Positions 142 through 37,046 of a stretch of DNA of 37,046 nucleotides are shown here, piece by piece. Numbering within the stretch: position 1 is the stretch's first letter; each line of letters starts with the position of its first letter. The DNA lies in IMG/VR virus record IMGVR_UViG_2896601577_000003; one strand, given 5' to 3'. Made by a program: the position numbers and the translations under genes. The DNA is from a virus. Its lineage: Duplodnaviria; Heunggongvirae; Uroviricota; Caudoviricetes. The notes under the pieces are model-generated. The model made no database searches. It was not told the DNA's origin and saw only the letters and a program-made list of their open reading frames with translations.

Positions 142-492
142 AGCGCTTGCTCCTTTTTCGGGGAGGCGCTAACCTATCACTTGCTTAGGGTAGACGGTTA
201 GGGCCTCGGTTAAACAAAAATGTTTTCCGGGGCCTTTCCACATCTGGCCTTCAGGTATTCCCTCCGACCATCAGCCGAAAGGCACCCGCGCGTAATCTAT
301 CGCTTTTTTGTTACTCCGGCAATTCTGCTCGTTAATTCTGAGGTAAGGGCAAACTCATCTGATTGTTTCCTCTGTGTGAAGTTGGCAGTTCATGCCACGG
401 GTAGACTGGCCCCCTGAATCTCCAGACAACCAGTATCACTTAAATAAGTGATAGTCTTAATACTAGTTTTTAGACTAGTCATTGGAGTACAG

Positions 493-854
493 ATGATTGA
501 TGTCTTAGGGCCGGAGAAACGCAGACGGCGTACCACACAGGAAAAGATCGCAATTGTTCAGCAGAGCTTTGAACCGGGGATGACGGTCTCCCTCGTTGCC
601 CGGCAACATGGTGTAGCAGCCAGTTATTTCTCTGGCGTAAGCAATACCAGGAAGGAAGTCTTACTGCTGTGGCCGCCGGAGAACAGGTTGTTCCTGCCTC
701 TGAACTTGCTGCCGCCATGAAGCAGATTAAAGAACTCCAGCGCCTGCTCGGCAAGAAAACGATGGAAAATTAACTCCTCAAAGAAGCCGTTGAATATGGA
801 CGGGCAAAAAAGTGGATAGCGCACGCGCCCTTATTGCCCGGGGATGGGGAGTAA
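493..854 (+). pseudogene. insC: IS2 orfA (InsC), frame-broken
   Basis: ORF 448..720 contains [44 protein letters not shown] (InsC N-terminus) and then leaves the InsC frame near 620. An in-frame TAA follows at 771-773 (MEN*). Intact InsC should be about 121 aa ending near 854. Confidence 0.7.
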
Positions 855-1717
855 GCTTAGTCAGCCGTTGTCTCCGGGTGTCGCGTGCGCAGTTGCACGT
901 CATTCTCAGACGAACCGATGACTGGATGGATGGCCGCCGCAGTCGTCACACTGATGATACGGATGTGCTTCTCCGTATACACCATGTTATCGGAGAGCTG
1001 CCCACGTATGGTTATCGTCGGGTATGGGCGCTGCTTCGCAGACAGGCAGAACTTGATGGTATGCCTGCGATCAATGCCAAACGTGTTTACCGGATCATGC
1101 GCCAGAATGCGCTGTTGCTTGAGCGAAAACCTGCTGTACCGCCATCGAAACGGGCACATACAGGCAGAGTGGCCGTGAAAGAAAGCAATCAGCGATGGTG
1201 CTCTGACGGGTTCGAGTTCTGCTGTGATAACGGAGAGAGACTGCGTGTCACGTTCGCGCTGGACTGCTGTGATCGTGAGGCACTGCACTGGGCGGTGACT
1301 ACCGGCGGCTTCAACAGTGAAACAGTACAGGACGTCATGCTGGGAGCGGTGGAACGCCGCTTCGGCAACGATCTTCCGTCGTCTCCAGTGGAGTGGCTGA
1401 CGGATAATGGTTCATGCTACCGGGCTAATGAAACACGCCAGTTCGCCCGGATGTTGGGACTTGAACCGAAGAACACGGCGGTGCGGAGTCCGGAGAGTAA
1501 CGGAATAGCAGAGAGCTTCGTGAAAACGATAAAGCGTGACTACATCAGTATCATGCCCAAACCAGACGGGTTAACGGCAGCAAAGAACCTTGCAGAGGCG
1601 TTCGAGCATTATAACGAATGGCATCCGCATAGTGCGCTGGGTTATCGCTCGCCACGGGAATATCTGCGGCAGCGGGCTTGTAATGGGTTAAGTGATAACA
1701 GATGTCTGGAAATATAG
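812..1717 (+). CDS. insD: IS2 orfB (InsD) transposase, DDE catalytic domain
   Basis: 301-aa ORF; sequence matches IS2 InsD as I recall it (…[32 protein letters not shown]…[19 protein letters not shown]…). Confidence 0.9.
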
Positions 1718-1728
1718 GGGCAAATCCA

Positions 1729-1924
1729 ACGGGATGCCCTCTGATGAGTGAATGGGGGAGGCGTGCTTTGAAGTGAATTTGTGGAAGGCTTCCAGTGTTG
1801 AGAAACATACGCCGCATTCTAGATTGTTACACTGATAATACTTTTGTCTCACGGTGTTTGAATCATTTTCCGGACGACTGGTGCGGATACGGGCAGATGC
1901 GCCACAAAGCGGACAACGGAACAT
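1729..1924 (-). pseudogene. ogr: Ogr/Delta-family zinc-finger late-gene activator, interrupted after codon 65 by IS2 (3' remainder at 332-396)
   Basis: N-terminus MFRCPLCGASARIRTSRPENDSNTVRQKYYQCNNLECGVCF has the C-x2-C ... C-x4-C spacing of P2 Ogr. ORF 1688..1924 runs into the IS2 end (the tail [11 protein letters not shown] is IS2-encoded and recurs on ORF 33127..33366). Joining 1729 to 396 across the duplication restores an 86-codon ORF ending TAA at 334-332. Confidence 0.7.
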
Positions 1925-2059
1925 AGCGACCTCTCTTATTGTAGTGCTTGCACTATTCTAGGTTGTATTCTCTAAGATTTAAACATGACTTTCTCTATAT
2001 AATGATTTTTAGCATTAGTTAATAAACGAACGGCACTCTAAGGAGCGCCGTCAAAGATA

Positions 2060-4918
2060 TTATTCTGATGTCACTCTTTGCGAGTGAGCTATTTTTAAAT
2101 CAGCGTTTCCTTCAAATACTACATTCAACTCATAGTTAAGAGTTAGCTTGAATTTTTCTGAGTCACTTTTGATATTCTCTGAAGTGACATTTACTAACTT
2201 ATTATTATCATATTCTCTAATAATTAATTTAGTGAAGTAGTTATCCTTTACCACAAGAGAAAATGGTTGATTAACAAATGGTAAGAAGTAAACCTTACGG
2301 GTACCGGATTCAGTAGTTATGTTCATAGAGCCATCATCATTTTTTCTCATTAGTTCTCTGAGGTTGGGATTATCGAAAAGCATACGATTATATTGCTGAA
2401 AGATCTCTTTACTCATCACAAGAACCAGTTTGCCAGCCAAGTCAGCAGATGATTTTATGTGATCAATCAACATATTGAAATCTTCTATTACGGTATGTTG
2501 CGAACAGCCAGTGCTAAATAAATTTGAAAGTATTATTCTCTGGATGTCCTTGAGAATTAAGTCTGCTTGAATATCACCTTCATTGATATAAGGGATGGAT
2601 TCTATTCCTTCGGCATACGGTTCTTTATCTATCTTAATAGATATCTTATGTTTTGTGAAACAATCGCTAGCCTGCTTAAAATCAATAGATTTGAAAAGTG
2701 AAAGAGGGAGCGTTTTCTTGATGCGTTTACGAAGATGTTCTGATGTTTTACGTGCAGTGCTATCTAGTCGATGTACATCTATGGCAGCATCCTGAAGTCT
2801 CATATCAAGATCTTTCTTTAGCATGTTAATATGCTCTTGAAGCAACTTTCTTAAGTTTTCTTTTTTTGTTTGGAGATCGTCCAATGTTAAAGTCAGCTTG
2901 ATTTTAGTGTATTCGATGGAGTTACAAATTTTTGATAATACTCCAATGAGTCGTTGCTTCTCACGATATGTTATATAGTTGTTTTCTATTGCTTCTTTTA
3001 TTTCTTTTGATACGCTATCGTTCTTGTTAGAAAAAATTAATAATAGCTGAACCCATGATTGTTCCATATCAATAAATCCACAGTCAAAAACATTACTGTA
3101 AACTCTGCCCATCACCATGTCTGTTTTATCATAGTCACGTAAACGCCTTGCTAAACTATTCATCCACCCATTGTGCTCCATATTTTCAGACCATGTCCAC
3201 AGGCAGATTCTAATTAATATCTTGATTAGTTGGCTTGCATTATCAATTTCTTCAGTGGGAGTTTCATATCCACCGGTTTGGTCAATAAGTTTACCCTCTA
3301 AAATAAGTTTAATGTAATGTGTCATTAGTTTGTCAGAAGTATTGATTCTTGATGTCAGATAAAGACATGTGCATATACGCATGTCAGTCAACGCATTTAT
3401 GATGGCAATATTGAACCACTCTCTGTCTGAATTGAAGTTTAGTTTTTTGGATATGAAAAAAACCGGGTTAAAAAGCTGGCCTTTGTAACTGTATTTTTCT
3501 ACCGAATGGCTGTCAATATTCATTGAGTGCTGCCATCGGTTAATAAGATCGACGGCTGTATCAATAGTAGAAGGATCGCGAGTCTGTGTTGCATCAATAA
3601 TCATCGATGGAAGTTCTTGTAGTTGCGTTTTGCAAAATAATTCAAATAAATCTGAATTCTCTGTATTGCAGAAACGAAAGTTTATGCTTTCTTGATATTG
3701 CTCCCAAACAGTGGTATAGGTTCTTAATATACGATTATAACGTGAACGAAGCGAGGCATTTAAGAGTGATTGGTTGTTTCGGAACCATTCTGTCAATATT
3801 GACCATTGTGAACGAGTAATTCCCATATAGATACAAAGTTCATTGCTGATAAGATGTTTTCTATTATTGATAATACGCACTCCGCTCCAAAGACATAATT
3901 CAAAAAATCTTTCAGAAAGATTAATTTTATCCATGGAATTATTTGATATTTTATAAACTTCATCTGAAAACTCATATTGAAAACTCCGTTCAAATAATTC
4001 TGTAGTGATCAGTAAGAAGTTATTGTTGGTATTATCATCTTGAAAAAAATACAAATCGCAGAGATTATTAAAGTTATTAATTAATGCAGAGATAGCATTG
4101 TCAAAACTAATGAGATCAGAATCCCGCAGATACATATACGTATCTGCTGTTATAGCCTGCATTGTAAGACTTACGGAAAAATCTCCTCCTTTAATCGGAG
4201 CCCTATAAAAACATTGCTTAAGTATTTTTATTAATAAGCTGTCTGGTTTGATATTTTTAACGCTAAAAAGTATCTTACCCGTGGATTCTGTTTCTTTTGT
4301 ACGATTATCACCAATGACAAATGACGCAAAATGATTCTTCTTTTTTAGTTGGTAATTAATAAGATTAAGAGTAAGTTGAAAAGGACGGTGATATAAACTT
4401 AACTCATCTTCCTTAGAATAACTGCTAGCCACAGATATGTATTCTCCTTTGTAATCAGCTTGCTTGATTTCTAAATTTGAATAGTTATGTTTTTGATAGA
4501 TAGGGTATAACCTAAGCTTGGCTGAGATTTTGTTACAAATATGGGGCATTACTATTTCGAAGGCAATGTATCGCTTTATAATTATTTGCCGTTTTACATC
4601 ATCAAGAATTTCAAGACTCACGATAAAGAACCAAATAGAAAGAACTATGTTTATCAAAAGCCATAATATGCTGATTAGACAAGCTATACCATAAAGATAA
4701 CTTCCAAAGACAGTTTTAATTAGTACACTGAGAAGTATAAATCCTGATAAGAAAAGCCCGCTGAGTCCAGCAAGCATGAATCCTGAGTAACGCTGATAAG
4801 CAGTTTGGGCTATTTTTCTATCTGCCTTTTTTTGGAATAAGATACTTACTAAACCTATAACAAGGGGTATACAATACCAATAATTGTCAATTGGCCACTT
4901 AAAATGGTTGTTTGCCAT
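2060..4918 (-). CDS. Hypothetical 952-aa membrane-anchored protein, unknown family (cargo gene in AT-rich island)
   Basis: Uninterrupted 2859-nt ORF in visibly AT-rich DNA. The first ~110 aa contain 3-4 hydrophobic helices (CIPLVIGLVSILF; FMLAGLSGLFLSGFILLSVLI; YLYGIACLISILWLLINIVLSIWFFIVSL). The remaining ~840 aa are Lys/Asn/Ile-rich with a coiled-coil-like stretch (…LTLTLDDLQTKKENLRKLLQEHINMLKKDLDMRLQD…). I found no Walker A, PD-(D/E)xK, HEPN or kinase motif by eye. Confidence 0.6.
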   Translation of the reverse strand: MANNHFKWPIDNYWYCIPLVIGLVSILFQKKADRKIAQTAYQRYSGFMLAGLSGLFLSGFILLSVLIKTVFGSYLYGIACLISILWLLINIVLSIWFFIVSLEILDDVKRQIIIKRYIAFEIVMPHICNKISAKLRLYPIYQKHNYSNLEIKQADYKGEYISVASSYSKEDELSLYHRPFQLTLNLINYQLKKKNHFASFVIGDNRTKETESTGKILFSVKNIKPDSLLIKILKQCFYRAPIKGGDFSVSLTMQAITADTYMYLRDSDLISFDNAISALINNFNNLCDLYFFQDDNTNNNFLLITTELFERSFQYEFSDEVYKISNNSMDKINLSERFFELCLWSGVRIINNRKHLISNELCIYMGITRSQWSILTEWFRNNQSLLNASLRSRYNRILRTYTTVWEQYQESINFRFCNTENSDLFELFCKTQLQELPSMIIDATQTRDPSTIDTAVDLINRWQHSMNIDSHSVEKYSYKGQLFNPVFFISKKLNFNSDREWFNIAIINALTDMRICTCLYLTSRINTSDKLMTHYIKLILEGKLIDQTGGYETPTEEIDNASQLIKILIRICLWTWSENMEHNGWMNSLARRLRDYDKTDMVMGRVYSNVFDCGFIDMEQSWVQLLLIFSNKNDSVSKEIKEAIENNYITYREKQRLIGVLSKICNSIEYTKIKLTLTLDDLQTKKENLRKLLQEHINMLKKDLDMRLQDAAIDVHRLDSTARKTSEHLRKRIKKTLPLSLFKSIDFKQASDCFTKHKISIKIDKEPYAEGIESIPYINEGDIQADLILKDIQRIILSNLFSTGCSQHTVIEDFNMLIDHIKSSADLAGKLVLVMSKEIFQQYNRMLFDNPNLRELMRKNDDGSMNITTESGTRKVYFLPFVNQPFSLVVKDNYFTKLIIREYDNNKLVNVTSENIKSDSEKFKLTLNYELNVVFEGNADLKIAHSQRVTSE

Positions 4919-5178
4919 TCGGTTAATGAATGCCTAAACGGGAAATAATGTAAAAGATTATTTTTTATAAATAATTCGTTTAAATATCCAACATAAAGTA
5001 GTACAAATGAAAAAGCTGATATGCAAAGTACTGATTTAACCGGTGAGGATGTTAATCTTATGATGTTTTTTTCAATAAAATTCCATTTTAAATTCGAATA
5101 AAATGGATTTTTAACCATTTTATTACGAACATAGTTCTTTGCTAAAATCTCTGTTGCACTTAAAAATTGTCCAATCAT
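4855..5178 (-). CDS. Small hypothetical membrane ORF (107 aa), either a separate gene or the frame-shifted N-terminus of the 952-aa gene
   Basis: ORF overlaps the 5' end of the large ORF by 64 nt in another frame. Contains a hydrophobic helix (VLCISAFSFVLLYVGYL). Same AT-rich composition. Homopolymers GGGG/AAAA lie in the overlap. Confidence 0.35.
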   Translation of the reverse strand: MIGQFLSATEILAKNYVRNKMVKNPFYSNLKWNFIEKNIIRLTSSPVKSVLCISAFSFVLLYVGYLNELFIKNNLLHYFPFRHSLTEWQTTILSGQLTIIGIVYPLL

Positions 5179-5426
5179 GAATTACTCTTCTATAAAGTGT
5201 GGGTCTACTAACTAAACTGGAACTTTTACTATTGAGTCATATTCCCTTGGACGGGATGGACTGTGAAGATTATACTTGACTTCCTCTGTCATGTGGGAAA
5301 AACATCCGTATTATTGTTAGCATCTGGTTGATGCCCCAACCTCTGACATCTAGTGGGCTGATACATTATCTTTTGTTCTTACTGTCAGTGTAGAAGCACA
5401 TCTCAAAAATAATATTTTTAAGAGAT

Positions 5427-6534
5427 TTATTCTGTTTCTGCTATCCATTCCGGGATTTTTGCTTCAAGTTCAAGCTGCGTGGTAAAGCCGCTGTTATCAA
5501 TGGTGTGCTCGGCTTTTGCAATAATCCAGTCCTGATAATCAATCTCGCTTTTAAAGCCTGTCACTGTGCCATGCATTTCGGGATAGAGTTCTGCACGACC
5601 ACGCGCCAGCGTGATGGAGAATGATGCGGCTCCGCGTTGTAGCTGCTGCCACTTTGCCGCCGCTGCGCGTCTTGCTGCCTGCTCGTTCTGATAAGTCTTG
5701 CGTAACACAAACACGTTGCCTTCCGCACCTTCCATATAGTCGCCTTCCCGACTGCTACTTTTCTCCTTTTTGGGTTTTGGCGGTTTGCGGCGTTTCACGC
5801 TGACTTTTTTCTTTTTCCCGTAATTAAGATCAAGCCAGTAGGCGCGTACCCCCGTATACGCCTCGCGGTCAGCAATGCGGAACTGATGGCGATCGCCGCT
5901 GCTGCGTGTAATGGCGAACGAGGGCAACGGCTGCCCCTGTGCGTTCACGCCACCACCTGGCATGATGAATAACAGATTGCCGCTTTTTACCGTGGCGATT
6001 GCTCCCAGCATTTCCGCCATGCGCGTAAGAAAGGACATGTCGCTTTCTTCGGTCTGGTCGGCGTGGTCGATTTCGATATCCATCAGCATTTCGCTGATTT
6101 GCGGTTTCAGACCGTATCGATGAGCGATGGCGGATACCACACGCTCAACGGTCACATCATGCCAGGACACCTCACGTTTAACGTTAAATTCATCCCGAAA
6201 ATCTGCGCTTCTGGCTGAAACAGTCAGCCTGTCCGGCGGTCCTTCGTGAGCGATTTCATCAACAATGTAAGTGCCTTTTTCTGTCAGCGGTTCCCCTTTC
6301 CAGCCAATGAGAACCGTCAGACGCGGCCCCGTGGCGGTAGCTGCAACTGACCATCCGCATCATCCAGCGTGATGGTGAGCTGGTCCGCCTCAAATCCCCG
6401 GTTGTCGGTCAGTTACAGGCTCATCAGGCGCTCCGCCACGCCTGACAGCGTTTTACCCTCCGAGAGAATATCAAAATCCGGCATTTTCACGGGGGCCGTG
6501 CCCTGACTGAGCAATTGCATGGTGGTGTCGGTCA
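5427..6534 (-). pseudogene. D: P2 gpD-like tail protein; C-terminal 247 codons intact, N-terminal third frame-broken
   Basis: ORF 5427..6170 matches the P2 D C-terminal region as recalled (…ATVKSGNLLFI…ITRSSGDRHQFRIADREAYTGV…REGDYMEGAEGNVF…SGFTTQLELE…). ATG at 6534-6532 gives MTDTTMQLLSQGTAPVKMPDFDILSEGKTLSGVAERLMSL, then an in-frame TAA and frame changes before 6170. Confidence 0.8.
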
Positions 6535-7877: not shown

Positions 7878-8353
7878 TGGCTGTGCCAAAACATCTTCGC
7901 TTTTTTACGCTGTTTGTGGATGGTGAAAACGAAGTGGGTAATGTGACGTCCGTCACTCTGCCTAAGCTGACGCGCAAAACCGACAGCTACCGGGGTGGTG
8001 GCATGATGGGTGCGGTAAGTATTGATCTCGGTCTGGACGACTCCGCGCTTGATGCGAGCTTTGTCATGGGGGCGCAGTTCGTGAGCTGTTCCTTAAGTAT
8101 GGCGGCACGATTGACGGCACGCTGCTGCGTTTTGCGGGTGAATACTACACCGATGCAGAAAGCGACCTGTATGAAGTCGAAATGCGCGGACGTGTGACGG
8201 AAATTGATATGGGGGAAGCCAAACAGGGCGAAGCCACATCACACACTTACGCCATTAAAACACCTACTACAAGCTGAGTGTTAACGATCGCCCGTTGTGG
8301 GAGATTGACCTGCTGAACTTCATTTACCGGAAGGACGGGGTAATGACTCCAAC

Positions 8354-8731
8354 TTATTGATAGTGTTTTATGTTCAGATAATGCCCGATGACTTTGTCAT
8401 GCAGCTCCACCGATTTTGAGAACGACAGCGACTTCCGTCCCAGCCGTGCCAGGTGCTGCCTCAGATTCAGGTTATGCCGCTCAATTCGCTGCGTATATCG
8501 CTTGCTGATTACGTGCAGCTTTCCCTTCAGGCGGGATTCATACAGTGGCCAGCCATCCGTCATCCATATCACCACGTCAAAGGGTGACAGCAAGCTCATA
8601 AGACGCCCCTGCGTCGCCATAGTGCGTTCACCGAATACGTGCGCAACAACCGTCTTCCGGAGCCTGTCATACGCGTAAAACAGCCAGCGCTGGCGCGATT
8701 TAGCCCCGACGTATCCCCACTGTTCGTCCAT
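8354..8731 (-). CDS. insB: IS1 InsB (expressed as InsAB' by -1 frameshift)
   Basis: 125-aa [43 protein letters not shown]… matches IS1 InsB. Confidence 0.9.
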
Positions 8732-8775
8732 TTCCGCGCAGACGATGACGTCACTGCCCGGCTGTATGCGCGAGG

Positions 8776-9051
8776 TTACCGACTGCGGCCTGAGTTTTTT
8801 AAGTGACGTAAAATCGTGTTGAGGCTAACGCCCATAATGCGTGCAGTTGCCCGGCATCCAACGCCATTCATGGCCATATCAATAATTTTCTGGTGCGTAC
8901 CGGGTTGAGAAGCGGTGTAAGTGAACTGCAGTTGCCATGTTTTACGGCAGTGAGAGCAGAGATAGCGCTGATGTCCGGCAGTGCTTTTGCCGTTACGCAC
9001 CACCCCGTCAGTAGCTGAACAGGAGGGACAGCTGATAGAAACAGAAGCCAC
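8776..9051 (-). CDS. insA: IS1 InsA
   Basis: 91 aa [46 protein letters not shown]… matches IS1 InsA. Confidence 0.9.
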
Positions 9052-9219
9052 TGGAGCACCTCAAAAACACCATCATACACTAAATCAGTAAGTTGGCAGC
9101 ATCACCGAAGGACGGCAAGGACATTGTGCCCGATCGCATCCGTTCCGCGCTTGGGCTTGGCTGATAAGTAATATGCTGGCGGCGCAGTGCGTCGCCTCTG
9201 ACTGAAAAGGAGACAACAG

Positions 9220-15715: not shown

Positions 15716-17186
15716 TTAAATACTCCCCGCGTTATACCACGTCCCATTAATGCAATACTGAATTGGCCTTGCCTGTGTTGTATCAATTAATTCATCACGG
15801 TTTCCGTTAACTGAACCCGTAACGACATAACCTGACCTGTCAGACCAGCCGGGACCATTCCATGTCTGAACAGATGACAGACCGCCAAGGCGAATACCTG
15901 TAATAAACCTTGAGTTACATTCTGCCCGCGTATATGCACCAACATCTCCCGCTGAAGGTTTTCGTGTCGTGGTATAGAAATCTGACCAACCTAATTCAAC
16001 CCGGTAATGACTCCAACTTATTGATAGTGTTTTATGTTCAGATAATGCCCGATGACTTTGTCATGCAGCTCCACCGATTTTGAGAACGACAGCGACTTCC
16101 GTCCCAGCCGTGCCAGGTGCTGCCTCAGATTCAGGTTATGCCGCTCAATTCGCTGCGTATATCGCTTGCTGATTACGTGCAGCTTTCCCTTCAGGCGGGA
16201 TTCATACAGTGGCCAGCCATCCGTCATCCATATCACCACGTCAAAGGGTGACAGCAAGCTCATAAGACGCCCCAGCGTCGCCATAGTGCGTTCACCGAAT
16301 ACGTGCGCAACAACCGTCTTCCGGAGCCTGTCATACGCGTAAAACAGCCAGCGCTGGCGCGATTTAGCCCCGACGTATCCCCACTGTTCGTCCATTTCCG
16401 CGCAGACGATGACGTCACTGCCCGGCTGTATGCGCGAGGTTACCGACTGCGGCCTGAGTTTTTTAAGTGACGTAAAATCGTGTTGAGGCTAACGCCCATA
16501 ATGCGTGCAGTTGCCCGGCATCCAACGCCATTCATGGCCATATCAATAATTTTCTGGTGCGTACCGGGTTGAGAAGCGGTGTAAGTGAACTGCAGTTGCC
16601 ATGTTTTACGGCAGTGAGAGCAGAGATAGCGCTGATGTCCGGCAGTGCTTTTGCCGTTACGCACCACCCGTCAGTAGCTGAACAGGAGGGACAGCTGATA
16701 GAAACAGAAGCCACTGGAGCACCTCAAAAACACCATCATACACTAAATCAGTAAGTTGGCAGCATCACCATTCAACCCCATAACCATCACGAGCCGACCT
16801 GTAGGAAATGCCACCATTTTTATAATTCACACGGAATTGTACGGCAGGACAGCTACCAGCATTTATATTAAAGTGAAGAATTAATGTAGATGCACCACCA
16901 ATCAGGGCGTTATATGCACTACTATCCCAATTCCATCCAATGGATGTATCACCATTAACAGTATTACCTGTTTGTCGGAGTGCAAATGCATTGACATTTT
17001 TGGCACTAATTGAAATATCGCTAGAACCATCAAAACCAACTCCAGCAATTTTTCGTGCTGTTTTCAGCTTTGTTGCAGTAGCGGCATTGCCGGACAGTTC
17101 CCAGAAAGGCCACCGCTGAATGTTTGTCGATTGGTCCAGGTATTCGCTGTACTGAGTAACGGTATTTTCTCCCCGCTTGTGCCGAG
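15716..17186 (-). pseudogene. Tail-fibre variable C-terminal segment (Sv') joined in frame to H, interrupted by IS1 copy 2
   Basis: Reading on from H through the crossover site gives …AKNVNAFALRQTGNTVNGDTSIGWNWDSSAYNALIGG…DGYGVE | IS1 | …GWSDFYTTTRKPSAGDVGAYTRAE…IQYCINGTWYNAGSI, stop at 15718-15716. Confidence 0.7.
16003..16769 (-). mobile_element. IS1 copy 2 inserted inside the invertible tail-fibre cassette
   Basis: Same termini as copy 1. Perfect 9-bp target-site duplication ATTCAACCC at 15994-16002 and 16770-16778. InsB intact (16018..16395); insA frame-broken at a C-run (ORFs 16440..16667 and 16532..16714). Confidence 0.95.
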
Positions 17187-29699: not shown

Positions 29700-30160
29700 G
29701 CTTCGCCGGGGCATAAAAAATTTATGCCCCGACTCTCCAGCTCCTGTATCAGTCAGATAATTTCACGACGCCTTCCAGTTTATCGCCACCATCGACGGTC
29801 AGACTCTTACGCAATCCCACCGCGTTGACTGCATGTTCTCGCCGCCTCAGTGCGATTTTGACGGCCTTACCTTTCACCCCATCAAATCAGAATCCCTCAC
29901 GTATTTTTCACGCTCAGCGTGAGAAATACGGCCATTCTGTCGTGTCGCTGCGACATCGTTAAGGGAACGCTATTTACCCCCTGAAACGCGGGCTGTTCCC
30001 CGTCACCTGCGCGCAGAAAAAGCGCGTTTTTTTGTGCACGCACGGATCCTTGACGGATCCAGCCGCCACGCGGGCTGGAAGGGCAAAAATTCGTTCAAAA
30101 AAATTGTGCAAATTTGTGCACTATTGTGCAGCAGGGCGATGTGCGATTATCGCCCTAGTT
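29700..30160. other. Non-coding cos-proximal region (packaging site presumed here by synteny)
   Basis: About 470 bp with no convincing ORF, between the portal gene and the early-region cargo. Contains a perfect 10-bp-stem hairpin (29708-29730), a near-palindrome (29904-29926), direct ACGGATCC repeats (30042-30049, 30053-30060) and phased TTGTGCA repeats. I could not match the P2 19-nt cohesive end from memory. Confidence 0.3.
30104..30130. repeat. Three direct TTGTGCA repeats with exact 10-bp phasing
   Basis: TTGTGCA at 30104-30110, 30114-30120 and 30124-30130, followed by a 7-bp-stem hairpin GGGCGAT…ATCGCCC (30134-30155). Confidence 0.7.
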
Positions 30161-30169
30161 TGAGGGGGA

Positions 30170-30760
30170 TCAGGTGTTATTTTTATCTGTCGTCAGTGGG
30201 CTAAACCATCCACAATTTACATCGCATGACTGATGCGTTCTGTCCTCGTGTTTCTCCTGCCACAATGCTTTTCCGCCAGCCTTTATGATGGCTCTTTCAA
30301 CATCCCGCTCGTATCGCAAGGGCTGAAATACGTCATTAATGAAATATTCGCTTATGTCCGGAAGCGATACTGCAAAATTATTTGTTTGTTGCGCCGTCCT
30401 GCTATGCAGCAAAGCGGCATGCTTTAATGCGTCCTGTGCTTTCTGGAATTTAAGTGCATAGTCAGTGGCGATTTTTTCCAGTTCAGCGATTCGGTTGTCT
30501 TTGGTTTCCAGCCAATCAAGTAGCGCCAATACTTCAGGATCCCCGACATCCAACACTGTTACGCGTGATTTTTCATAATGTTCGTCAGCAAGAGTTCGGC
30601 CAATTTTGAAATCTCCATCATCACCATAACCGGAGCAGGCATAAACAACCTGTGCTCCAGATATTCGCTGAATTGACATTTCCTCGCCGCAAATAGGGCA
30701 TTTCGGTACTGGCACAGGTGAATAACGTTCACGTAATGCCTGATAGTTGATTTCGCTCAT
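30170..30760 (-). CDS. Hypothetical 196-aa protein with N-terminal zinc-ribbon-like motif; last gene of the early-strand operon next to cos
   Basis: MSEINYQALRERYSPVPVPKCPICGEEMSIQRISGAQVVYACSGYG… (C-x2-C … C) plus a C-terminal …HQSCDVNCGW. No family recognised. Confidence 0.55.
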   Translation of the reverse strand: MSEINYQALRERYSPVPVPKCPICGEEMSIQRISGAQVVYACSGYGDDGDFKIGRTLADEHYEKSRVTVLDVGDPEVLALLDWLETKDNRIAELEKIATDYALKFQKAQDALKHAALLHSRTAQQTNNFAVSLPDISEYFINDVFQPLRYERDVERAIIKAGGKALWQEKHEDRTHQSCDVNCGWFSPLTTDKNNT

Positions 30761-30823
30761 TAAGTCGTTCTCCTTGTTTATGTTCTGAGGTGGAGAGCAG
30801 GGCGAACTCGCCCTGATGTTGTG

Positions 30824-31135
30824 TTATTCAGGAAATAACGCCCGGATATTTCCGGCCATCTGACTGGTTATCTGTGCGGTTGATACTGGCTGTGATGTGG
30901 GGCGTTCTGTCCTGGTTTGTGTCACTGATAACGCTTCATCACCAGCCCATGCAGCCAGTCGATAAGCCTCTGCCGGATTCATTTTCAGAAGTGCCAGCCC
31001 GGCCAGAAAAGCCACGCGTTGGCCGCTTTTGCGGGCTTCTGGTGTAAGGCTGTCCAGCCAGGCGCATGCTTCTCCTTCGTTCTTGACGGCGGTGGGCTTC
31101 AGATAGAAACTTATCCGTCTGGTTGGAGTCGTCAT
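30824..31135 (-). CDS. ParR-like partition adaptor / centromere-binding protein
   Basis: From ATG at 31135: MTTPTRRISFYLKPTAVKNEGEACAWLDSLTPEARKSGQRVAFLAGLALL…IRALFPE resembles plasmid R1 ParR as recalled (…IAFKLNP…LDSIP…ALTAGLALY…LRSLFP). Start lies 4 nt after the parM-like stop with AAGGAG upstream. The ORF-track start at 31270 is an upstream extension. Confidence 0.65.
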   Translation of the reverse strand: MTTPTRRISFYLKPTAVKNEGEACAWLDSLTPEARKSGQRVAFLAGLALLKMNPAEAYRLAAWAGDEALSVTQTRTERPTSQPVSTAQITSQMAGNIRALFPE

Positions 31136-31139
31136 TGGT

Positions 31140-31745
31140 TTACTCCTTGTCCATTGCGTACAGCCCATTAACCAGAGCAAACTGTGGCACCCCGTCCGCG
31201 ATGAAAGTCGCATTAACTCCGCAGGCTTCGCGGATAGCGGGTGCCACAATCTCCGCCCCTCCACCGACAACCATCACCCGCCCGTAACCCGAAAAACCCG
31301 CCAGCGCGCGGATCACGCGTTGTTTCAGTGTTTCTTCCTTTTCACGAATTACCGCCATAAGGCTGGCGTAATGCGCGTCATTGTGGATGTGCTGGCGCAG
31401 CCAGGCTTCATCATGGCGATGTTCGATAATGGTATTGGCGATGTGGTGACTGGTGCGCATACCGTTAGTGGCCATCACCGACAGTACGGCATCGGCCATC
31501 AGAGAAACGCCCACGTGTGGATCGCAAAACACCTGGCTGATACCTGCCAGTTGCCCCTGAACCTTTGCCACATCCAGCGTGGTTCCGCCCAAATCCACAA
31601 TCAGCAGGGATTCAAACGGACTCATGTCAGCCAGTGCCTTAAAGCCAGCCGGAATGGATTCAGGCATAACCCGTACGTTACGGATAGTGAATGCTTCGCC
31701 GTTCTGGTACTCCACCGGGCGCATGACGTTCGCTTTTTTGCGGTT
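31140..31745 (-). pseudogene. ParM/StbA-like actin-fold ATPase, C-terminal ~200 codons only (5' end removed at the IS911 junction)
   Basis: …SLLIVDLGGTTLDVAKVQGQLAGISQVFCDPHVGVSLMADAV… and …GYGRVMVVGGGAEIVAPAI…VNGLYAM match the ParM phosphate-2 and C-terminal motifs. The first 5 codons of ORF 31140..31760 are encoded by the IS911 terminal repeat. Confidence 0.7.
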
Positions 31746-32902
<1,157 letters not shown>

Positions 32903-33167
32903 AACCGAAGAACACGGCGGTGCGGAGTCCGGAGAGTAACGGAATAGCAGAGAGCTTCGTGAAAACGATAAAGCGTGACTACATCAGTATCATGCCCAAA
33001 CCAGACGGGTTAACGGCAGCAAAGAACCTTGCAGAGGCGTTCGAGCATTATAACGAATGGCATCCGCATAGTGCGCTGGGTTATCGCTCGCCACGGGAAT
33101 ATCTGCGGCAGCGGGCTTGTAATGGGTTAAGTGATAACAGATGTCTGGAAATATAGGGGCAAATCCA
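32903..33167 (+). mobile_element. IS2 3'-terminal fragment (about 265 bp) abutting IS911
   Basis: Identical in content to 1464-1728 of the complete IS2 (InsD C-terminus …[28 protein letters not shown]… and right end GGGGCAAATCCA at 33167). Confidence 0.85.
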
Positions 33168-33366
33168 CTGCGGCACAGATCAGCTCGGAAAGTTCGTTAA
33201 GTGCATCCAGATCATCAGCGTAAAAAGCCACGTCATACAGACTTCGGATTGCTCTGGTCAATGAGTCACGGGCCGCACGTTCAGCATGAGCGCCTGATGC
33301 ACTTAAGCGAAAATAAAAACGCTCAAGTGCTTTGTTAATGAGAGTTTTATATTCTTTGCCCATCAC
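33168..33366 (-). pseudogene. Early-operon gene, 5' fragment truncated at the IS2 fragment
   Basis: ORF 33127..33366: MMGKEYKTLINKALERFYFRLSASGAHAERAARDSLTRAIRSLYDVAFYADDLDALNELSELICAAVD then an IS2-encoded tail. Confidence 0.4.
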
Positions 33367-33374
33367 AACGCCCT

Positions 33375-34010
33375 TTAATCTGCTTTCTGTATTTCAGCTT
33401 CTGAATCCATACAAATAATTTCGATATAGGGTTCATCGCCATTAACCTGGCGTGCCTTTTCAGCTTCGCTAATGATTTCTCGTACGGTCTGGTACGGAAG
33501 TTCCACAAGCAGTCGCGTGCCGTTCAGATAAACGTAAGTGGCTTCGTCGGCTCCGTTTTTACCCGCCGGAGTCACTCCGTCAATAGCGGATGCACGTAAT
33601 AACAGTTCACCGCGAAAATCAATAAAACGGATAAATACACCTTGTGCATGGTCTTTGGTCATAAAGCACCTGTTATAAATCAGTCTGTTTAATAAAACTT
33701 TGCCGCGAAGCAGACGATCAATCGTGCGAAGTGCTTCGTATAATGTGAAATCCTGCCCGAACTGATTGTCGCCACAGCTCAATGCAAAAATGCGGTTTCC
33801 GGTAAACGGATTGCGTGGGCATTTGTGGATCACGATTCCAGCTTTCTCAATCAGCCAGGTGTGCTCGCCGATTTGTTTTACTGGGTAGCCATCCTGCGTT
33901 GCGTGTGTATCACTCAGGCTGTAGCGGATGTTGCTGCGTGATGCACTGGTAGTGAAACGGTTAGCGTGGCGTTCTGTTCCGGTACGAAAATTACGGCGTT
34001 GCTTCAGCAT
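33375..34010 (-). CDS. Hypothetical early-operon protein (211 aa), in the position of P2 orf78/B
   Basis: Intact ORF downstream of the cox-position gene; no motif recognised. Confidence 0.45.
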   Translation of the reverse strand: MLKQRRNFRTGTERHANRFTTSASRSNIRYSLSDTHATQDGYPVKQIGEHTWLIEKAGIVIHKCPRNPFTGNRIFALSCGDNQFGQDFTLYEALRTIDRLLRGKVLLNRLIYNRCFMTKDHAQGVFIRFIDFRGELLLRASAIDGVTPAGKNGADEATYVYLNGTRLLVELPYQTVREIISEAEKARQVNGDEPYIEIICMDSEAEIQKAD

Positions 34011-34303: not shown

Positions 34304-34348
34304 GTGTGATAACCTGCGCTATCTGTGGTTGTTTGTGACTTGGTGTGC

Positions 34349-34388
34349 TTATAAGTACACCTTGTGCGCAAGCTTAGTGTACTTATAG
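34349..34388. promoter_or_regulatory. Candidate operator: 40-bp near-palindrome in the divergent cox/C promoter region
   Basis: TTATAAGTACAC…GTGTACTTATAG inverted arms (11/12) around the palindromic core CTTGTGCGCAAGC, centred between the divergent starts at 34303 and 34400. Confidence 0.4.
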
Positions 34389-34399
34389 GGACACTGTCA

Positions 34400-34708
34400 A
34401 TGCTTATCGGTGAAAAAATTAGAGTGATTCGTGAATCAGAGGATTTAACGCGCGAAGAATTTTGCGGCCTGATTGATGTGCCTATCGGCACTTTGCGTCG
34501 TTATGAAACGGGGCGGATTGAAAACATAGGGGGCGAAGTGCTTATCAAGATTGTTAATCACCCTCGCTTTTTTAAGTACATGAATTGGCTTATGACGGGA
34601 AAAACAAATGAGGCTGCTGGGCAGATCAGTCCCTCTCTCTCCCCTGATGGGCCAGAAAACACATCGTCTTCTCAAAAATCCCGCAAGACTGGTACACAGC
34701 CCGGCTAA
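34400..34708 (+). CDS. C: Immunity repressor (P2 C-like, HTH)
   Basis: From MLIGEKIRVIRESEDLTREEFCGLIDVPIGTLRRYETGR… to …QISPSLSPDGPENTSSSQKSRKTG; parallels P2 C as recalled (…SEKIVLMRKSEYLSRQQLADLTGVPYGTLSYYESGR…QIAPALAHFGQNETTSPHSGQKTG). The ORF-track start at 34364 is an upstream extension. Confidence 0.8.
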   Translation: MLIGEKIRVIRESEDLTREEFCGLIDVPIGTLRRYETGRIENIGGEVLIKIVNHPRFFKYMNWLMTGKTNEAAGQISPSLSPDGPENTSSSQKSRKTGTQPG

Positions 34709-34757
34709 TCATAGAACGCTGGGGCATGGTGGTCTTGTAACGCTGGGGTTTCACGAA

Positions 34758-36065
34758 TGAACCGCCCGGGAATCCTGGAGACTAAACTCCCTGAGAAAGA
34801 GGTAAACAGGATGACTAAAAATACTCGTTTTTCCCCGAAGTCCGTCAGAGGGCGATTCGTATGGTTCTGGAAAGTCAGGGCGAATATGACTCACAGTGGG
34901 CGGCAATTTGTTCCATTGCCCCAAAGATTGGCTGTACACCGGAGACTCTGCGTGTCTGGGTACGCCAGCATGAGCGGGATACCGGAGGCGGTGATGGCGG
35001 GCTCACCACCGCTGAACGTCAGCGTCTGAAAGAGCTGGAACGTGAAAATCGTGAACTGCGCCGCAGTAACGATATCCTTCGCCAGGCTTCCGCTTATTTT
35101 GCGAAGGCGGAGTTCGACCGCCTCTGGAAAAAGTGATGCCACTGCTGGATAAGCTGCGTAAGCTGTACGGGGTCGGACCGGTATGCAGTGAACTACATAT
35201 TGCCCCGTCAACGTATTACCACTGTCAGCAACAGCGACATCATCCTGATAAACGCAGTGCCCGTGCGCAGCGCGATGACTGGCTGAAGAAAGAGATACTG
35301 CGCGTATACGATGGGAATCATCAGGTATACGGTGTGCGTAAAGTCTGGCGTCAGTTGTTACGGGAAGGTATCAGAGTGGCCAGATGCACTGTGGCACGTC
35401 TCATGGCGGTTATGGGACTTGCCGGTGTTCTCCGGGGTAAAAAGGTCCGTACGACCATCAGCCGGAAAGCCGTTGCCGCAGGCGACCGCGTAAACCGTCA
35501 GTTCGTGGCAGAACGACCTGACCAGCTGTGGGTGGCTGATTTTACTTACGTCAGCACATGGCAGGGCTTCGTCTATGTGGCGTTCATCATTGATGTGTTT
35601 GCCGGATACATCGTGGGGTGGCGGGTCTCATCGTCCATGGAAACGACATTCGTGCTGGATGCTCTGGAGCAGGCGTTATGGGCCCGTCGACCGTCCGGCA
35701 CGGTCCATCACAGTGATAAAGGTTCTCAGTATGTATCGCTGGCCTACACACAGCGGCTTAAGGAAGCCGGATTACTGGCATCAACAGGAAGTACAGGCGA
35801 CTCGTATGACAACGCGATGGCGGAGAGCATCAATGGTCTTTACAAAGCGGAGGTAATACACCGTAAGAGCTGGAAAAACCGTGCAGAAGTGGAACTGGCC
35901 ACACTCACGTGGGTGGACTGGTATAATAATCGACGATTGCTGGAAAGGCTGGGCCATACTCCTCCGGCAGAAGCAGAAAAAGCTTATTATGCTTCCATCG
36001 GAAACGATGATCTGGCAGCCTGAGTTCACAGATAAAACACTCTCCAGGAAACCCGGGGCGGTTCA
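34758..36065 (+). mobile_element. IS3-family element (IS629-like, about 1.31 kb) inserted between C and int
   Basis: Imperfect terminal inverted repeats TGAACCGCCCGGGAATCCTGGAGA… (34758…) and …TCTCCAGGAAACCCGGGGCGGTTCA (…36065). orfA from about 34811 (MTKNTRFSP…, one frame break near 34840) and orfB 35133..36023 with a DDE domain; A AAA AAG slip motif near 35124-35130. Flanked by the direct repeat CGAA (34754-34757 and 36066-36069). Confidence 0.85.
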
Positions 36066-36068
36066 CGA

Positions 36069-37046
36069 ATGAGCATAAAATCAATTCTGGGAGGGTATCT
36101 TCTTGACATGTGCCCTGAGGGGCGTAAAGGCAAACGCATTCGCAAAAAATTTAAAACGAAATCGGATGCAGTTTTATATGAGCGGTGGGTGCTGGCGCAA
36201 CAGCATAACAATGAGTGGAAAGGAAACTCTATTGATCGCCGTCCTCTGTCAGTGCTTATTGACTTGTGGTGGAAATACCACGGCCAGCTAATGAAGTCAG
36301 GGCATAACACGCGCCTTAAATTGCTGCGCTTGAGTGAAGCAATGGATGACCCGTGCGTGCATAAACTTAATACAACGATGCTCACCGAGCTACGTGTGTC
36401 CAGGATAGAGCAGGGGATACAGCCCAGCACCATAAATCGAGAGATTGGGGCGTTAAGCGCGATGTTTACCGCACTCATCTCATCCGGCCATTTTCTTAAC
36501 GATAACCCCGTTCAAGGCCTTAAAGGAATGAAGGTTAAGGAGCGCGAAATGGGATATCTGAGTAAGTCTGAATGTGTTCAGTTGCTGGATGCACTGGCTG
36601 AAAATCCCGATGAACGACTGGCTGTCGAAATCCTTCTGTCGACCGGGGCGCGATGGGGCGAGGTAGCGGCACTGGAGCAGCGCCGTGTTCTTCATTGTCG
36701 AATCACTTTTTCAAAAACGAAGAACAGCAAAAACCGTACCGTTCCTATTTCTGAAAGCCTGTTTGAAAAGATCAAAAAACGGGGCGGGAAACTGGTGTTT
36801 CCGACGCTGGATTATTCATTGGTTCGCGATGTCATCAAAACGGTCGCACCTGATGTTCCTGACGGCCAGGCTGTTCATGCGCTGCACCACACCTTCGCCA
36901 GTCATTTCATGATGAACGGCGGCAATATTCTGACGCTCCAGAAAATTCTGGGGCACGCAAAGATTCAGACAACGATGATTTATGCCCATCTTGCGCCGGA
37001 TTACCTGCAGGATGCGGTGAGGTTTAATCCACTAGGAGGTGCTTAA
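36069..37046 (+). CDS. int: Tyrosine integrase (P2 Int-like)
   Basis: 325 aa ending …HALHHTFASHFMMNGGNILTLQKILGHAKIQTTMIYAHLAPDY… (R…H-x2-R…Y catalytic region); N-terminal …GRKGKRIRKKFKTKSDA… parallels P2 Int. Stop is the last codon of the window. Confidence 0.9.
   Translation: MSIKSILGGYLLDMCPEGRKGKRIRKKFKTKSDAVLYERWVLAQQHNNEWKGNSIDRRPLSVLIDLWWKYHGQLMKSGHNTRLKLLRLSEAMDDPCVHKLNTTMLTELRVSRIEQGIQPSTINREIGALSAMFTALISSGHFLNDNPVQGLKGMKVKEREMGYLSKSECVQLLDALAENPDERLAVEILLSTGARWGEVAALEQRRVLHCRITFSKTKNSKNRTVPISESLFEKIKKRGGKLVFPTLDYSLVRDVIKTVAPDVPDGQAVHALHHTFASHFMMNGGNILTLQKILGHAKIQTTMIYAHLAPDYLQDAVRFNPLGGA

Follow-up and report, generated by a model that had tools for sequence, protein, structure and literature searches.

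Here, we provide evidence that an insertion sequence (IS) of the IS629 type, lodged at the start codon of the integrase gene (int) of a P2-like prophage, is as a whole best explained as a late, neutral step in the decay of an element that was already immobile, an explanation we consider probable. The window, i.e., the whole 37,046-nucleotide (nt) stretch of DNA from IMG/VR record IMGVR_UViG_2896601577_000003, carries this IS between the gene for a C-type immunity repressor (C) and int. The integrase (Int) encoded behind the IS has a histidine in place of its second catalytic arginine (R273H), and because the prophage appears to have been immobile already (R273H, four more IS copies, and no gene A), the insertion would have been without real consequence.

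An IS629-type insertion at the start codon of int

Read along the plus strand, the junctions of the element run in the order ...AACGCTGGGGTTTCA-CGAA-TGAACCGCCCGGGAATCC...(IS)...CCCGGGGCGGTTCA-CGAA-TGAGCATAAAATC, with the left boundary formed by GGGGTTTCA, CGAA, and then the IS start TGAACCGCCCGGG, and the right boundary by CCCGGGGCGGTTCA, CGAA, and then TGAGC. The terminal sequences, TGAACC at 34758 and GGTTCA at 36065, give the element TG...CA ends, and imperfect inverted repeats of ~24-25 base pairs (bp) bound it on both sides (Table 1). In Escherichia coli SE11, which has a prophage of the same family, the empty site reads ggggtttcacgaATGagc and contains a single CGAA. This bears out what an earlier reading of the letters without database searches (hereafter the sequence-only reading) had proposed, namely a CGAA duplication (34754-34757 and 36066-36069) that adjoins the int start codon. 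The in-silico excision which that reading had put forward as a check restored a C-int junction colinear with SE11: once the IS and one CGAA were removed, window and SE11 aligned as one block of 1835 nt at 99.56% identity with one 1-nt gap, and the distance from the C stop codon (34706-34708) to int came to 48 nt, compared with 49 nt in SE11 and with the gap of about 50 bp that had been predicted.

The uninterrupted junction, reconstructed over 400 nt, occurs in 229 of 5426 complete E. coli genomes. Among the listed megablast matches in this genome set, none has the IS at the C-int junction, the IS lying elsewhere. The three E. coli genomes that cover >80% of a 3.1-kb query also carry the IS elsewhere, two of them inside a cox-like gene and one downstream of int; the O111 matches are rearranged. 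The right junction had no exact match in IMG/VR or the GTDB species representatives, and a search with the C protein recovered only long contigs without the IS and no second copy of the left junction. The insertion can nevertheless be taken as real, because an independent assembly (L016; GCA_001906145.1) has the same right junction: one of its contigs begins within the IS and continues through the junction into int, matching the window at 100% identity. The last 4978 nt of the window are also 100% identical to locus L010 (GCA_002949895.1, CP026867.1).

Both junctions share a stretch of 10-11 nt (TTCACGAATG, 10 nt identical at both; TTCACGAATGA, 11 nt repeated at both), because the target resembles the tips of the IS. 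Since the junction sequence is repeated, the length of 4 bp assigned to the duplication depends on the canonical TG...CA termini, which are common to all other copies. Target duplications of IS629 are 3-4 bp long (PMC3271280); across 15 distinct copies, we found 3 bp in 13 and 4 bp in 2, making 4 bp the rarer length.

The integrase lost a catalytic arginine before the IS arrived

Int is a P2/HP1-type tyrosine recombinase with the Pfam domains Int_N and Phage_integrase, and it matches PDB entry 5c6k_A (deposited as 'Integrase', and which we take to be the P2 integrase) with E = 2e-79 and the HP1 integrase (1aih) with E = 2e-44. The ATG at 36069-36071 is its true start, because homologues of Escherichia, Salmonella, Yersinia, Edwardsiella, and Aeromonas begin with MSIK at the same residue and because residue 1 of the window Int aligns with residue 1 of the WPhi Int in tblastn. 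An alternative start, taken from the 50-amino-acid (aa) N-terminal extension of one homologue (P0001), was rejected as an over-long gene call, its upstream open reading frame (ORF) overlapping C.

Compared to its E. coli counterparts, Int differs by P7L, R15C, N157K, and R273H, and all four nucleotide differences between int and its SE11 counterpart are non-synonymous. The last of these exchanges turns HALRH into HALHH and replaces the catalytic arginine of box II. Position 273 is arginine in SE11, RM19259, BB24-1, and 300709, it aligns with the arginine of the HxLRH motif in 5c6k_A and HP1 Int, and its column holds arginine in every one of 116 full-length homologue representatives (48-98% identity). 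The catalytic set is thus incomplete, with R195, H270, H296, and Y305 present and H273 where the second arginine (Arg II) belongs. In tyrosine recombinases, catalysis is abolished by loss of Arg II; the lambda Int variant R311H is said to be a classical catalytic null, for which a literature search gave no confirmation. As a separate observation, R15C (codon 36111-36113) falls in a column that is arginine in 106 of the 116 homologues.

An identical 325-aa Int is encoded at loci L007-L009 and L011-L015, at which no IS lies between C and int; Shigella boydii 600657 (CP049281; PMC7545283) represents one such IS-free locus. Since the H273 protein is thus the same at sister Shigella loci that lack the IS, R273H is older than the IS. 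From the identical Int in sister genomes including S. boydii 600657, we infer that the host of the window prophage is of the Shigella type.

The prophage is degraded well beyond the integrase

Comparison with the SE11 prophage shows damage to replication and structural genes alike, and the window does not hold a complete inducible P2-like prophage. Four other IS copies reside in it, two of them in tail genes: one IS1 interrupts the tail tube gene and a second the tail fibre gene, and the remaining two are IS3-family copies distinct from IS629 (Table 1). In place of the 6.8-kb early region of SE11, to which the replication endonuclease gene A (product gpA) belongs, the window has ~3 kb (30131-33168) holding an Ead/Ea22-like gene, a truncated plasmid-type ParM, and one of these IS3-family copies (31776-32866). 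Further lesions are a truncated gpD and a split tape measure gene. A further stretch, 1967-5440, does not align with the SE11 prophage and contains a 952-aa ORF (2060-4918, minus strand) that may be accessory cargo; searches of this ORF against Pfam and PADLOC gave no match.

Possible effects of the IS on int transcription and the start region

In P2, C and Int are both expressed from a lysogenic operon under the Pc promoter (PMC3936717; PMC1904263). The window has the same gene order as WPhi and P2, with a cox-like gene pointing leftward and C and int pointing rightward (cox<-|->C->int), and, after in-silico excision of the IS, a short C-int spacer. The IS and its duplication add 1312 bp between C/Pc and int, in agreement with the ~1.3 kb that the sequence-only reading had placed between int and its upstream signals. 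That reading had also given the IS terminators of its own, for which we found no support: on the plus strand of the IS, a terminator scan detected one weak terminator-like site (35523-35538), the region totalling 4 against 3.1 +/- 1.4 by chance, so that no intrinsic terminator rises above chance. Of the proposed uncoupling of int, the physical separation from C and Pc therefore stands, and termination as its mechanism does not.

The IS is oriented like C and int, on the plus strand. A distance of 45 nt separates the orfB stop codon from the int ATG, and read-through from Pc or from an IS promoter into int could therefore occur in this shared orientation. The right tip of the IS restores the native int leader TTCACGA, with GGGG two bases further upstream. 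Over 16 nt, the 34745-34757 region and the 36057-36069 region are 88% identical, the G-rich Shine-Dalgarno-like run shifts by only 2 nt, and the start region is predicted to be no less accessible, its mean unpaired probability being 0.62 with the IS and 0.56 without. The route by which int expression would most likely be lowered is Rho-dependent polarity across a poorly translated orfB, and a loss of int expression through polarity is plausible on the arrangement of the genes.

The sequence-only reading had named an outward-reading promoter at the right end of the IS as something that would count against it. Our check for such a promoter yielded one candidate, a perfect extended -10 element, TGGTATAAT, internal to orfB and 142 nt upstream of int. 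Only a minority of copies have the T allele that creates this motif (23 of the 153 examined), among them the IS629 copies found in sister Shigella genomes. A standard promoter and terminator scan found nothing at the right end of the IS, the extended -10 element emerging only from a relaxed scan; neither the standard nor the relaxed consensus scan found a promoter where Pc must lie, and such scans are weak evidence either way. A literature search on an IS629 promoter or polar effect returned nothing relevant.

The insertion site resembles the right end of the IS

The sequence to the left of the duplication, GGGGTTTCA, matches the tip of the right inverted repeat (IRR), GGCGGTTCA, at 7 of 9 positions, the best match of all sites examined, the others reaching at most 5; the chance of at least 7 of 9 matches is ~1e-3 per orientation. 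Together with the 4-bp spacer and the left inverted repeat (IRL), this flank imitates the IRR-spacer-IRL junction of an IS circle. For IS911 and IS30, insertion beside sequences resembling an inverted repeat, giving IRL-IRR junctions, is described in PMC9333248 (citing Loot et al. 2002) and PMC2909936, and the flank-spacer-IRL arrangement in the window has the geometry given as the hallmark of such targeting in PMC9333248. Unlike for IS911 and IS30, such targeting is not known for IS629, for which a survey of O157:H7 reported no sequence-specific target (PMC3271280), and here we have one site, a match of 7/9, and a normal duplication. Nevertheless, likeness of the target to an inverted repeat, not selection on int, is the likely reason for the position of the insertion, and such a target would explain the apparently 'recreated' int leader.

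Relationships of the element and its surroundings

The IS is 99.5% identical to 1310-bp E. coli copies annotated as IS3 family transposase, and a nearly full-length copy of it occurs in 3043 of the 5426 complete E. coli genomes. Identity to the BP-4795 phage copy annotated as IS629 is 97.9%, and a single mismatch separates the window copy from the IS629 copy in the sister genome L009, which justifies the 'IS629-like' label of the sequence-only reading. The product of orfB matches Pfam rve (E = 5e-28) and the NCBIfam IS3 family transposase model NF033516 (309 bits vs a cutoff of 160). RefSeq places the ALIL pseudoknot found here in other copies as well, inside transposase coding sequences labelled 'programmed frameshift'.

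With the IS629/IS1203/IS3411 isoform group, the window copy thus shares a length of ~1310 bp, TG...CA ends, imperfect inverted repeats of ~25 bp, an orfA with a helix-turn-helix (HTH) domain and an orfB of the DDE type, the ALIL pseudoknot, a target duplication within the range of 3-4 bp, and 97-99.5% nucleotide identity to annotated copies. It departs from the group in being 1308 bp long, without one C in the IRL and one in orfA (probably a sequencing error), and in carrying the minority AAT allele that creates TGGTATAAT. Prophages contain 62% of the IS629 copies of O157:H7 (PMC3271280), and in keeping with this preference the window copy also sits in prophage DNA. Some IS629 copies (L007, L008, L069; 1306 bp) have in common a 4-bp deletion, GTGC, in orfB and form a defective sub-lineage.

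Compared to P2 and WPhi, the window has the same order of genes and a short spacer (48 nt after excision vs 69 nt in both phages), and its Int is 48% identical to theirs. The window prophage is nonetheless a distinct lineage, since Int identity to any isolated phage does not exceed 56%; it resides between ihfA and btuC, its operon is split by the IS, and its Int carries R273H. The C protein has weak matches to the Pfam families HTH_3 and HTH_31, and a helix-turn-helix protein is annotated for the SE11 gene at the same position. Direct repeats, GTGTGCTTATAAGTACAC (34344-34361) and GTGTACTTATAGGGACAC (34377-34394), lie 33 nt apart in the interval from the cox-like gene to C; they are probably operator-like half-sites for the C repressor, and those of WPhi are 34 nt apart (PMC1904263). 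Within the C-int spacer, the 10 nt AACGCTGGGG occur twice as a perfect direct repeat (34715-34724 and 34739-34748); the repeat is conserved in SE11, and its second copy provides a G-rich stretch upstream of int.

The IS1203 insertions of E. coli RM19259 and O157:H7 BB24-1 share with that of the window their IS group, their orientation, the prophage family, and the lysis-lysogeny switch region that is hit. They differ from the window insertion in splitting the cox-like gene ~0.6 kb upstream of the window site, in leaving C and int contiguous, and in having an Int that keeps R273. These copies in the cox-like gene (1743-3040 in L003, and in L004; RM19259 and BB24-1) represent an independent insertion of the same IS group.

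Single-base deletions in the source assembly

Relative to SE11, a single base is missing from about a dozen C/G runs across the prophage (examples in Table 1). Two of these deletions lie in the 2.6 kb adjoining the IS and are not present in sister draft assemblies, and two more fall within the IS itself, where the C run in the IRL is reduced from four to three (34765-34767) and that in orfA from five to four (34833-34836). These deletions look like long-read assembly errors. Elements of this isoform group make a fusion of orfA and orfB through programmed -1 frameshifting; the ALIL frameshift pseudoknot is present in the window copy. In orfA, the frame breaks after codon 8 at a run that has five C in all 10 other copies compared, and the C-terminal part of the gene is intact by Pfam; the frameshift is most likely an assembly error. 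Because the assembly drops bases in C/G runs, neither this frameshift nor several of the split structural genes can be trusted. Other apparent frameshifts of this origin are found in a 211-aa DUF4761 fusion ORF (33375-34010) and possibly in the split tape measure gene. Frameshifts in the window should accordingly not be taken at face value.

Table 1. Coordinates of features in the window (positions counted from the first letter of the 37,046-nt stretch)
Feature	Position	Strand	Remarks
IS3-family copy, not IS629	~401-1729		orfA 448-720, orfB 812-1717
IS1 (DDE_Tnp_IS1, E ~1e-74)	~8338-9100		interrupts tail tube gene, by comparison with SE11 prophage
IS1 (DDE_Tnp_IS1, E ~1e-74)	~16002-16770		interrupts tail fibre gene, by comparison with SE11 prophage
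Single-base deletions in C/G runs (examples)	13278, 17099, 18540, 19165, 22768, 28059, 29997, 33702, 34720, 34764, 34832		relative to SE11 and sister assemblies
Ead/Ea22-like gene	30170-30760		in stretch replacing SE11 early region
Truncated plasmid-type ParM	31140-31760		in stretch replacing SE11 early region
IS3-family copy, not IS629	31776-32866	-	orfB 31776-32501, orfA 32528-32866
C-type immunity repressor gene	34400-34708	+	102 aa; longer GTG ORF from 34364
C-int spacer remnant	34709-34753	+	direct repeat and IRR-like stretch
IRR-like stretch GGGGTTTCA	34745-34753	+	left of duplication
Left target-site duplication copy, CGAA	34754-34757		single in SE11 empty site
IS3-family insertion sequence, IS629/IS1203 type	34758-36065	+	1308 bp as assembled; canonical 1310 bp
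Left inverted repeat (IRL)	34758-34781	+	C run 34765-34767 has 3 C; 4 C in 10/10 other copies compared
orfA (HTH_Tnp_1)	34811-35136	+	frameshifted as assembled; intact frame resumes as ORF 34861-35136
ALIL pseudoknot (Rfam RF01497)	35091-35207	+	116.2 bits vs gathering score 50, E = 7e-31
orfB, DDE transposase (rve)	35133-36023	+	296 aa; stop codon 45 nt before int ATG
Extended -10 TGGTATAAT, candidate promoter	35919-35927	+	Trp-Tyr-Asn codons of orfB; 142 nt upstream of int
Right inverted repeat (IRR)	36041-36065	+	ends ...GGGGCGGTTCA; tip GGCGGTTCA
Right target-site duplication copy, CGAA	36066-36069		base 36069 is the A of the int ATG
int, P2/HP1-type tyrosine recombinase	36069-37046	+	325 aa; window ends at int stop codon
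Int codon 273, CAC (His) for box II catalytic Arg	36885-36887	+	HALRH to HALHH

A proposed late insertion on an already immobile prophage

We propose that an IS629-type element would have inserted by copy-out/paste-in into the C-int spacer of a P2-like prophage at ihfA-btuC on a Shigella-type chromosome, duplicating the 4 bp CGAA that end on the A of the int ATG, at a site probably chosen through the likeness of GGGGTTTCA and the following 4 bp to the right tip of the IS. The insertion would leave int 1.3 kb from Pc as the last cistron behind orfA and orfB, with Int synthesis probably reduced by polarity. By then, the second catalytic arginine of Int would already have been lost, and the IS would amount to one late insertion on an element no longer able to excise, replicate, or build tails. 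Several points weigh against this interpretation. Inactivation of Int by the exchange of arginine for histidine is argued from the universal conservation of the residue and from lambda Int R311H as a presumed catalytic null, the reduced expression of int and the neutrality of the insertion are both deduced from the sequence, and the proposed target likeness concerns a single site. Part of the apparent gene fragmentation may also be assembly error, which would not explain the IS insertions or the replacement of gpA.

In the sequence-only reading, the IS itself would ground the prophage by cutting int off from the C-int transcript and its upstream signals, so that no integrase would be made and no excision would take place. 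IS elements are classically polar, and the orfA frameshift, taken as assembled, would expose ~1 kb of untranslated RNA to Rho; the 1312 bp between C and int and the control of both genes by Pc in P2 (PMC3936717) point the same way. We nevertheless regard this account as unlikely, as the IS contains no plus-strand intrinsic terminator above chance, is co-oriented with int, and restores the int leader and start region with its own tip. Moreover, R273H is already found in sister loci without the IS, and with gpA gone and tail genes interrupted, the IS is not what immobilizes the prophage. The lack of excision thus holds as a description of its state, and as an effect of the IS it yields to older and stronger causes, i.e., R273H, which predates the IS, and the multiple disruptions. 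The IS might conversely supply transcription of int, through read-through or from TGGTATAAT, so that Int would be made independently of C/Cox control. The perfect TGnTATAAT on the plus strand 142 nt before the int ATG, the co-orientation of IS and int with no convincing terminator between, the native leader with its slightly more open start region (0.62 vs 0.56), and the precedent of outward promoters shown experimentally in some IS3-family elements (PMC9330008) would suit such a promoter swap. However, its -35 partners are poor (3/6), the motif arises incidentally from Trp-Tyr-Asn codons, other copies have its T allele whatever their neighbours, the scans missed Pc too and so are uninformative either way, and any Int produced would be H273; a swap therefore seems to us quite improbable.

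We give very little credence to an extension of this idea in which the site is not random, IS629 inserting, like IS911, beside a mimic of its right end, its IRR tip thereby restoring the displaced int leader, and int being re-wired from Pc/Cox to IS-borne transcription that includes 35919-35927. If true, IS3-family elements would have a ready-made way to capture expression of the gene behind their landing site. That the IS was instead misplaced by repeat mis-assembly in an error-prone long-read assembly is suggested by the many single-base deletions in C/G runs of the window, which point to an unpolished assembly. The clean 4-bp duplication, the canonical IS ends, the perfect colinearity with the empty site after excision, and the L016 draft contig that spans the IS-int junction at 100% identity make such an artefact extremely improbable. 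We therefore favor a late insertion into a prophage that was already immobile.

Conclusion

All components of this locus are of known kinds: the IS629 element, the architecture of the C-int operon, and the decay of a prophage through IS insertions, which is typical of Shigella. The finding consequently matters little beyond annotation, as it describes IS insertions accumulating on a prophage with a crippled integrase in a Shigella-type genome. It does carry a lesson for similar cases, in that the enzyme and the rest of the prophage should be checked before an IS at a start codon is blamed for the immobility of the element.

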